In this document: piece after piece, positions 1-31,409 of the stretch
Numbering within the stretch: position 1 is the first letter of the stretch
Layout: each line of letters begins with the position of its first letter
Assembly (NCBI RefSeq): GCF_003334785.1
Contig: NZ_QOWV01000006.1
Reading direction: 5' to 3' (one strand)
Length of the DNA: 64,000 bases
Source of the DNA: Escherichia coli
GTDB lineage: Bacteria > Pseudomonadota > Gammaproteobacteria > Enterobacterales > Enterobacteriaceae
Notes under the pieces: generated by a model
Databases searched by the model: none
Seen by the model: only the letters and a program-made list of their open reading frames with translations
Told to the model about the DNA's origin: nothing
Translations under genes and position numbers: made by a program

Positions 1-109
1 CTTGTTTCGCTTCAGAAGCGGTATAAACATCCCCTGACAGGGTGTCGTTATTAACACAACCGACAAGAGACAGACCTACCATTGAAACAACCAATACGCG
101 TTTAATCAT
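1..109 (-). CDS. slyB: Outer membrane lipoprotein SlyB, 5' end only (first 36 codons; gene runs off the left edge)
   Basis: Reverse-complement of 1-109 translates MIKRVLVVSMVGLSLVGCVNNDTLSGDVYTASEAKQ, a lipoprotein signal peptide with lipobox cysteine; divergent from anmK as in E. coli. Confidence 0.8.
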   Translation of the reverse strand, partial: MIKRVLVVSMVGLSLVGCVNNDTLSGDVYTASEAKQ

Positions 110-232
110 TGAAAAATCTCCTGTTCACCATGAAACGCCACGCAAGCATCCCTCATGGTCAAAGTATATGGCATATGTGAATCCATGGTTACATGTTCTA
201 CCAAATATGAGCAAATCATAATGAAAGTAGGA

Positions 233-249
233 TCAACCAATTATAAACA
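233..249 (-). promoter_or_regulatory. Candidate PhoP box upstream of slyB (TGTTTA-N5-GGTTGA on the minus strand)
   Basis: Direct-repeat hexamers with 5-nt spacer, one mismatch to the (T/G)GTTTA-N5-(T/G)GTTTA consensus; slyB is a known PhoP-activated gene. Confidence 0.4.
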
Positions 250-7216: not shown

Positions 7217-7826
7217 TTTTACCTCTTTTTTTACATCCCATATTAACGGGGGTGCTTTCTCGCGTTATGTATAAAAAACATACGCGCAATTGTTATAGTG
7301 GGAGGGGAAACGGCAGGTAATGTTCACTATCTTGCACTTTCAGACAAGTCCTTTGTAATAATCTGTTACATATAACTGAGGCGGGGAATTCAACCATTCC
7401 GGGAAATGTTATCCAGCGTTAAATTTTTCAAAAAACGTAACGGCAGATTTTTTCACTGCACTGAGAGGGGGGTGATGGCTTAACGGCGATATGTTCTGCT
7501 ATTTAGCGTTTTTACTAGTGAGATAGTCCAGTTTCTGAAAAATAGCCAGTGTAATGTTTTGTAGGTCAATATTTGTTGCGTGTGTAAATTTAAATGATTT
7601 TAACCTGATTCTTGCAATGTTTTTACATTGCGACAGCATCGTGATCTTGATCACGAATGAATAGAAAATTTCGCTATTAAAAAAACAATTAACCTGCATT
7701 TTTGGTTATCCGCAAACGGATTACCTGATGATAACGCTAAGCAATGGCATCATTGACGTTAAAAAGATGTTTTAAAAGAGGATAAAGAAAGGTTATCAAT
7801 GGGGTAATCGGTGTTACCCCTTTTCT

Positions 7827-19037: not shown

Positions 19038-21833
<2,796 letters not shown>

Positions 21834-28433: not shown

Positions 28434-28463
28434 CAGATTGTTGACAAAGTGCGCGTTTTTTAT

Positions 28464-28560
28464 GCCGGATGCGGCGTAAACGCCTTATCCAGCCTACAAA
28501 AACTCATAAATTCAAAGTGTTGCAGGAAAAGGTAGGCCTGATAAGCGTAGCGCATCAGGC
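28464..28560. repeat. REP pair (BIME-like): GCCGGATGCGGCGTAAACGCCTTATCCAGCCTACA and GGTAGGCCTGATAAGCGTAGCGCATCAGGC
   Basis: Two inverted canonical REP-like units in the uidC-ydgA intergenic region. Confidence 0.8.
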
Positions 28561-28580
28561 AATCTCTGGTTTGTTTTCAG

Positions 28581-28611
28581 ATGAAAACGCCGGAGTGAAA
28601 ATTCTCCGGCG
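28581..28611 (-). terminator. Rho-independent terminator after ydgA
   Basis: Stem CGCCGGAGT...TCTCCGGCG with a U-run on the minus strand; near-identical to the uidC terminator hairpin. Confidence 0.6.
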
Positions 28612-28624
28612 TTTTGGCCGTGAA

Positions 28625-30233: not shown

Positions 30234-31409
30234 TTACAGCTTGTTGTAAACACGCGCTAAACGGCCGTGGCCTTTGACAGTCACCGGTGATTCGTTGGCG
30301 GCAATAAACGCTGATTCACCCGGTTTAAGCTGTAACTGCTGAGAACCTTTCCACAACGTTGCATCGCCTTCGACGCAGAACAAAATGGCGGCACTCTGCT
30401 GGCTAATGGTGGTTTCTTTATCACTAAGGTCATGCAGCGAGAAGGCAAAATCATCCACTGGAATCGGGAAGTCCAGTTCTGCACCTTGTTTCACCGGCTG
30501 GGTCAACAACTGGTTAGCCGGTTTGGCTTCGAATTTCACATTGGCAACCAGTTCCGGAATATCAATGTATTTAGGCGTCAGACCCGCACGCAGCACGTTA
30601 TCGGAGTTTGCCATCACTTCCAGCGCCACGCCTTGCAGGTAAGCGTGCGGTGTTTCAGCGAACAGGAACATCGCTTCGCCAGGGTTCAATTTCACCACAT
30701 TCAGCAATAGCGGGGAGAACAGACCGCTGTCTTCCGGGTAAAATTCAGAAATTAAACGAATCGTTTGCCACGGTTCACCCTGCTGGCTATCGAGGGCCGA
30801 TTTTAAAATCGCCAGCGCGCGGGATTTTTCTTCACCCTGCATATTCAACAGGCTGGCGAACAGTTCGCTTAAACGTTCGGCATCAGGCTGTTGTAAAAAG
30901 TGAGCAATCGCCGGATGTGCACCTGCGACCGGCTGGAGTAGGGAGACAATCTCGGAAAATTCACGAAACGCGTTCATCGCAAGGAAAGGCGTCAGCGCAA
31001 AAACCAGCTCCGGCTTGTGGTTAGGATCTTTATAGTTACGCTCGGCGGCATCCATCGGGATACCTGCGGCATTTTCTTTGGCAAAACCGATTTCAGAATT
31101 GTGTTTGTTTGGATGAACCTGAATGGAGAGTGGCTGTGCTGCGCATAATACTTTGAACAGGAAAGGCAGTTCGCCAAAGCGTTTGGCAACGGCCTCTCCG
31201 AGCAGAGTCGATTTATCACTCTCAATCACATCACGCAGTGAAACGATATCTCCGGCGGCATTCTGCACTCGTGAACTGCTTTTCGGATGTGCGCCCATCC
31301 ACAGCTCGGCCATCGGCTGGCTGGACGGATTTTCCATACCATAAAGTTCAGTCAACGCCGTTTTGCTGCCCCAGGCATAGTTTTGCACTGAGTTAATGAG
31401 TTTTTGCAT
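30234..31409 (-). CDS. manA: Mannose-6-phosphate isomerase
   Basis: 391 aa from MQKLINSVQNYAWGSK; the track ORF has a 26-codon upstream extension. Confidence 0.95.
   Translation of the reverse strand: MQKLINSVQNYAWGSKTALTELYGMENPSSQPMAELWMGAHPKSSSRVQNAAGDIVSLRDVIESDKSTLLGEAVAKRFGELPFLFKVLCAAQPLSIQVHPNKHNSEIGFAKENAAGIPMDAAERNYKDPNHKPELVFALTPFLAMNAFREFSEIVSLLQPVAGAHPAIAHFLQQPDAERLSELFASLLNMQGEEKSRALAILKSALDSQQGEPWQTIRLISEFYPEDSGLFSPLLLNVVKLNPGEAMFLFAETPHAYLQGVALEVMANSDNVLRAGLTPKYIDIPELVANVKFEAKPANQLLTQPVKQGAELDFPIPVDDFAFSLHDLSDKETTISQQSAAILFCVEGDATLWKGSQQLQLKPGESAFIAANESPVTVKGHGRLARVYNKL

Follow-up and report, generated by a model that had tools for sequence, protein, structure and literature searches.

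That PhoP acts at the slyB and rstAB promoters is already known; these two PhoP boxes belong to textbook regulon biology and are not a discovery. At both loci, Shigella flexneri, whose genus falls within the E. coli lineage, shows no notable difference from E. coli: its slyB box is identical, PhoP shifts the promoter fragments, and expression decreases when phoPQ is deleted. For slyB and rstAB, S1 mapping, gel shifts, and footprints were reportedly carried out by Minagawa et al. in 2003. Perez et al. credit Minagawa et al. 2003 with showing that PhoP regulates slyB directly in E. coli, and state that SlyB, in turn, lowers PhoP activity (PMC2650801). More recently, positive control of E. coli rstAB transcription by PhoQ-PhoP was stated in a 2026 NAR paper, the third figure of which is titled accordingly (Fig. 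3, PMC13425233), and reporters for slyB and rstA were found to rise with optogenetically induced PhoP (2026 Cell Reports, PMC13215669). In the literature that we searched, we found no paper on PhoP ChIP-seq in E. coli.

The closest described counterparts are the slyB and rstA promoters of Salmonella, for which boxes, box-to-promoter distances, and start sites were tabulated in Zwir 2012 (PMC3335776). The slyB promoter represents architecture I, with a single direct box 12 nt upstream of the -10 hexamer TATGAT, a leader of approximately 100 nt, and no usable -35. The rstA promoter represents architecture III, in which one direct box lies 23 nt upstream of the hexamer, GCGGTG precedes the hexamer, and the leader is short. 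DNase I footprints were reported for the Salmonella PhoP-activated promoters, with a 20-nt protection stated for rstA and the slyB box given in the table (PMC3335776). Activation of rstA requires the alpha-CTD of RNA polymerase, a requirement shown for Salmonella only; mgtA, a promoter of the slyB type of architecture, was shown to be independent of the alpha-CTD (PMC3335776). Here, we compare the corresponding E. coli promoters with these systems.

Results

Two direct repeats upstream of slyB and rstA

We analyzed a stretch of 64,000 nt of the E. coli chromosome (RefSeq assembly GCF_003334785.1, contig NZ_QOWV01000006.1), hereafter the window, which runs from slyB through anmK and past rstBA to ydgC in the reverse of the K-12 orientation. 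Its positions 1-400 correspond to the MG1655 (K-12) sequence without a difference. An initial annotation had read two repeats in this stretch as PhoP boxes and had thereby linked two loci to the PhoPQ regulon. The repeat on the slyB strand, TGTTTA-N5-GGTTGA, is indeed found at 233-249, on the minus strand and in a single copy. The repeat assigned to rstA, TGTTTA-N5-GATTGA, is also present, but one base away from the 37884-37900 originally given; its true span is 37883-37899. Both repeats are intergenic and in direct orientation, each upstream of its gene. The features of the two promoters and of the asr locus are collected in Table 1.

Table 1. Positions of promoter and gene features in the window. 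Arrows give the reading direction on the minus strand.
Feature	Position	Strand	Basis or remark
slyB PhoP box, TGTTTA-TAATT-GGTTGA (TGTTTATAATTGGTTGA)	233..249	-	sequence; matrix rank 1
slyB box, distal half-site	249→244	-	
slyB box, spacer	243→239	-	
slyB box, proximal half-site	238→233	-	
slyB P1 -10 hexamer, TATGAT	215..220	-	12 nt (TCCTACTTTCAT) past the box; as in Salmonella slyB
slyB PhoP-dependent start site	208	-	K-12 table, NC_000913.2 position 1717801, 193 reads
TATACT in slyB leader, candidate P2 -10	163..168	-	within conserved block ATGCCATATAATTT
slyB 5' coding end (outer-membrane lipoprotein)	1..109	-	start codon 109→107; truncated by the window start
rstA PhoP box, TGTTTA-GAAAC-GATTGA (TGTTTAGAAACGATTGA)	37883..37899	-	sequence, single copy; matrix rank 2
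rstA box, distal half-site	37899→37894	-	
rstA box, spacer	37893→37889	-	
rstA box, proximal half-site	37888→37883	-	
rstA -10 hexamer, TATTGT	37854..37859	-	23 nt past the box; GCGGTG immediately before
rstA start site	37844	-	K-12 table, NC_000913.2 position 1680165, ...GTGTATTGTGACGTTTTTA, 2 reads
rstA coding sequence (response regulator)	37107..37826	-	start codon 37826→37824
rstB	35802-37103		after rstA
Perfect RstA box, TACATATCGTTACA	48726→48713	-	~104 nt upstream of asr
asr	48301-48609		
samT/ydgU, 27-codon ORF (MVGRYRFEFILIILILCALIAARFYLS)	48125-48208	-	92 nt downstream of asr

Beyond the two promoters, the stretch between uidC and ydgA is about 181 bases longer in the window than in E. 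coli ATCC 8739. The additional sequence (approximately 28440-28620) is made up of an inverted pair of REP-like elements (BIME) bordered by a duplicated terminator hairpin (AACGCCGGAG...CTCCGGCGTTT).

Promoter geometry compared with Salmonella and Shigella

Relative to the mapped start site, the slyB box extends from -41 to -25. No -35 is recognizable at P1, and a sigma-70 consensus scan of the slyB strand returned no promoter. The only slyB start in the K-12 table is the one at window 208, where the listed upstream sequence ends ...TATGATTTGCTCA (also given as ...TGTTTATAATTGGTTGATCCTACTTTCATTATGATTTGCTCA). This base is the seventh past TATGAT, exactly where the geometry of box and hexamer predicts the start, and it leaves a leader of 99 nt (208→110). 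The E. coli promoter therefore shares with Salmonella slyB every element of architecture I listed above. The boxes themselves differ by five substitutions in the 19-mer (TCGTTTAAGATTGGTTAAT in Salmonella, TTGTTTATAATTGGTTGAT in the window), and the proximal half-site, GGTTAA in Salmonella, is GGTTGA in E. coli.

A second feature of the slyB leader is a strongly conserved block at 163-180 (minus strand), found as ATGCCATATAATTT in the majority of genera and represented by ATGCCATATACTTT in the window, that contains a near-consensus -10, the columns of which are invariant or nearly so in our alignment. From its sequence, this hexamer is probably the -10 of a second slyB promoter that does not depend on PhoP. 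Two slyB start sites have been described in E. coli and Salmonella, the second of them PhoP-independent (Zwir 2012, PMC3335776).

The rstA promoter resembles architecture III of Salmonella, with its single direct box at the same distance from the hexamer, GCGGTG in the same place, and a short leader. It differs in the hexamer (TATGTT, with a leader of 21 nt, in Salmonella), in the proximal half-site (Salmonella GATTTA, E. coli GATTGA), and in the start, which in K-12 lies 10 nt past the hexamer compared with a 5-nt gap in Salmonella. The K-12 start at 37844 was recorded in only 2 reads under non-inducing conditions, and the induced start may be located a few bases away. As at slyB, a sigma-70 consensus scan of the rstA strand found no promoter; the lack of a consensus promoter at both genes fits dependence on an activator. 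The distances permitted in Zwir 2012 are 12 nt for architecture I and 21-23 nt for architecture III, and the E. coli promoters, with 12 nt at slyB and 23 nt at rstA, agree with these. The comparison with published footprints that had been suggested for the two repeats turned out in their favor: the orthologous Salmonella boxes were footprinted and have the same spacing to the -10. An Rfam scan of the regions upstream of slyB and rstA gave no credible match.

Just upstream of the rstA box, at 37905-37926, there is an inverted repeat, TCATCAG-GTATTCTA-CTGATGA, that contains TATTCT on the plus strand (37913-37918).

In Shigella flexneri, the slyB box has been given as ttGTTTAtaattGGTTgAt, which is exactly the window sequence, and phosphorylated PhoP shifts fragments of both the slyB and the rstAB promoters in EMSA (Lin et al. 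2018, PMC5775216). Upon deletion of phoPQ, expression fell, with a microarray ratio of 0.41 for slyB and 0.07 for rstA (PMC5775216). The larger drop of rstA fits the existence of a PhoP-independent second promoter at slyB. It also bears on the description of the rstA box as the weaker of the two, which is right for the match to the motif and wrong for function, given these ratios. Against (T/G)GTTTA-N5-(T/G)GTTTA, the slyB box has one mismatch (in GGTTGA) and the rstA box has two (in GATTGA).

Matrix scan of the window

A search for the exact strings of the observed repeats would be circular, and, with one mismatch allowed, matches to the loose consensus KGTTTA-N5-KGTTKA were not enriched in the window (three against 2.05 expected). 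We therefore adopted an independent weight matrix of 19 columns, for which 36 Salmonella PhoP boxes with DNase footprints served as input (Zwir 2012 Table 1, PMC3335776). The slyB and rstA orthologs were omitted from it, so that the test remained independent. Among the approximately 128,000 positions of the window, the slyB site ranked first with 18.73 bits and the rstA site second with 16.19 bits, tied with one other site. Both scores exceed 13.7 bits, the median of the footprinted boxes used for training. When the whole window was simulated as a first-order Markov sequence, 0.7% of the simulations contained a score of 18.73 bits or more, and 0.18 sites were expected at 16.19 bits or above. 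When the simulations were based on the AT-rich intergenic composition (5.6 kb), these values were 0.2% and 0.11 sites, respectively, and the occurrence of two or more sites scoring at least as high as rstA had a probability of 0.005. The scan with a PhoP matrix, proposed as a check when the repeats were first noticed, thus placed them at the top of the window.

The site that ties with rstA, at 20749-20767 (minus strand; 16.19 bits; CGTTTTACCTTTTATTTAT), lies between malX and malI and overlaps the palindrome GATAAAACGTTTTACC. As a PhoP site, it is in all likelihood spurious. The malX-malI region holds two GATAAAACGTTTTA(C/T)C palindromes, one of them overlapping this hit, which we take to resemble the MalI operator. 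We also rejected, as a promoter site, a consensus match at 30247-30263 (minus strand; 13.1 bits). With the offset of 183 nt that separates the window from the annotated record of ATCC 8739 taken into account, this match is located past manA, in the short intergenic space that divides it from ydgA, and is upstream of no gene.

The fourth-best matrix hit, with 14.4 bits, is located between dtpA and nth, at 7677-7695 (minus strand; AGGTTAATTGTTTTTTTAA), approximately 460 nt upstream of dtpA. It may reflect OmpR-type sites, which are known for dtpA, or simply AT-richness. A further hit at 243-261 could represent a third half-site upstream of the slyB box; it is not conserved beyond Escherichia and some Citrobacter.

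Conservation of the boxes and their spacing

For slyB, we compared 80 loci with SlyB, one genome per species, from genera that included Escherichia, Salmonella, Citrobacter, Enterobacter, Kluyvera, Kosakonia, Lelliottia, Atlantibacter, Trabulsiella, Cedecea, Mangrovibacter, Mixta, Pantoea, and Rosenbergiella. In 75 of the 80 species, the best matrix site within 300 nt upstream was located 115-132 nt from the start codon and was followed 12 nt later by TAnnnT. The two half-sites carry 1.67 and 1.55 bits per column and the -10 hexamer 1.36, compared with 0.13-0.46 in the flanks, spacer, and gap. Because the loci were anchored on their best matrix hit, conservation within the box is overstated, and we therefore rely on the -10 hexamer and on the fixed distance to the start codon as independent evidence, since neither was selected for. 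A MAFFT alignment of slyB from 21 genera, in which the motif was not used as an anchor, likewise had invariant GTTTA and GTT.A columns.

The proximal half-site of slyB, GGTTGA in E. coli, is GGTTAA in most genera, the commonest form among the 80 species, and the T of the consensus is almost never found at the fifth position. The departure from (T/G)GTTTA is thus itself conserved.

For rstA, we examined nine other enterobacterial RstA loci, eight of which keep the arrangement of box, 23 nt, and TAT(G/T)(T/G)T. The GTG before the hexamer is invariant, and the full GCGGTG occurs in eight of the nine aligned sequences, E. fergusonii having CCAGTG. The exception to the arrangement is an RstA-like locus of Kluyvera genomosp. 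1 (82% identical), which lies next to nikR and has neither rstB nor a PhoP box. We considered this locus as an ortholog and, as it is boxless and in another neighborhood, treated it as non-orthologous or relocated. In the two Salmonella rstA loci, the gene immediately downstream of rstA is a porin gene, not rstB.

Within the species, the 35-mers around the boxes were found in 5,415 (slyB) and 5,413 (rstA) of 5,426 complete E. coli genomes (>99.7%). In the four variant strains that we sampled, two per locus, with the slyB pair representing one allele, the changes fall just outside the 17-mers.

Predicted activation and the RstA relay

By identical geometry and orthology with Salmonella, we infer a class II mechanism for E. 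coli slyB and a class I-like mechanism for rstA. In response to low Mg2+, acid pH, or antimicrobial peptides, the sensor PhoQ phosphorylates PhoP, a dimer of which binds head to tail on the two hexamers, separated by one helical turn. The slyB box stands in for the missing -35, 12 nt before TATGAT, and RNA polymerase would therefore be recruited in the class II manner; transcription then starts at window 208 and produces the 99-nt leader. At rstA, the distance from the box to TATTGT is 23 nt, greater by one helical turn, and activation would be class I-like and alpha-CTD-dependent.

The outputs of this scheme are SlyB, as negative feedback on PhoP activity, and the RstA/RstB two-component system, which in turn drives asr-samT, also within the window. 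The perfect RstA box, asr, and samT are all found there (Table 1). According to a 2026 NAR paper, SamT inhibits RstB and Asr provides positive feedback (PMC13425233).

Discussion

We estimate at roughly 95% the probability that the E. coli slyB and rstAB promoters have their PhoP boxes in these two repeats. Matrix rank, spacing to the -10, conservation, and published work on PhoP agree in assigning the PhoP box architecture to both of them, and the literature establishes slyB and rstAB as direct PhoP targets, so that the original link between two loci of the window and the PhoPQ regulon stands. That the repeats arose by coincidence, as an effect of AT-rich intergenic sequence and with no regulatory role, might be argued from the loose consensus, the count of which does not exceed expectation by more than chance, and from the malX-malI site, which reaches the matrix score of rstA and is probably not a PhoP site. 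However, the two boxes rank first and second in the window, two or more sites of such a score have the low probability given above under intergenic composition, and the position, orientation, and -10 spacing at slyB are kept in 75 of 80 species. The slyB start was also mapped where it was predicted, and both binding and regulation by PhoP are published (PMC3335776, PMC5775216). Rank, geometry, conservation, and the mapped start effectively refute coincidence, to which we assign a negligible probability. It is also very improbable that another regulator of the OmpR/PhoB family, such as RstA, OmpR, CpxR, or BasR, is the main binder in place of PhoP. All members of the family bind direct repeats about one helical turn apart, which gives this idea its appeal, but the hexamers found here match the PhoP matrix and not the RstA box TACATNTNGTTACA, the sole perfect match to which in the window lies upstream of asr. 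Moreover, PhoP-specific EMSA, footprints, and dependence on phoP have been published (PMC3335776, PMC5775216, PMC13425233, PMC13215669), and induction was reported to be lost in a phoP deletion and not in deletions of other regulators.

PhoP control of slyB and rstAB would also be compatible with an additional, bidirectional role of the boxes, by which PhoP would regulate the neighboring gene as well: ydgC, if the rstA box covers the -35 of a divergent promoter, or anmK, if it is influenced by the slyB box. From its sequence, the TATTCT within the inverted repeat may be part of a divergent ydgC promoter that overlaps that of rstA. The corresponding TATnCT on the plus strand, directed towards ydgC, is invariant in all nine aligned sequences (the window and eight loci), is separated from the rstA box by a gap-free 13 nt, and would place the ydgC start codon, at 37955, behind a 5' UTR of approximately 30 nt. 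A divergent arrangement of this kind, in which one box serves two overlapping promoters, was reportedly described for the PhoP-regulated treR-mgtA region of E. coli by Yamamoto et al. in 2002, a precedent relevant only to this speculative reading. Against it, the candidate ydgC -35 hexamer is poor (TTTCTA), the sole K-12 ydgC start on record lies elsewhere, 285 nt upstream, with 2 reads, and in the literature searched we found no paper that ties ydgC expression to PhoP. PhoP boxes placed in reverse orientation at 12 nt or 23 nt, furthermore, do not activate (PMC3335776). On balance, a bidirectional role is unlikely, and we regard it as doubtful that the rstA box is also an operator over the -35 of a ydgC promoter. 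If it were, PhoP would activate rstAB while modulating, and probably repressing, ydgC, the gene of a GlpM-family membrane protein, in a manner comparable to treR-mgtA.

Taken as PhoP boxes of slyB and rstAB, the two repeats open no new question. Their value is that of a positive control, in which a reading made from sequence only recovers true regulon sites, together with precise coordinates for annotation. Of the PhoP targets, only two are conserved throughout the Enterobacteriaceae, slyB being one of them, and the window carries the complete known relay, from the PhoP box to rstAB and from the RstA box to asr-samT, the products of which feed back on RstB.
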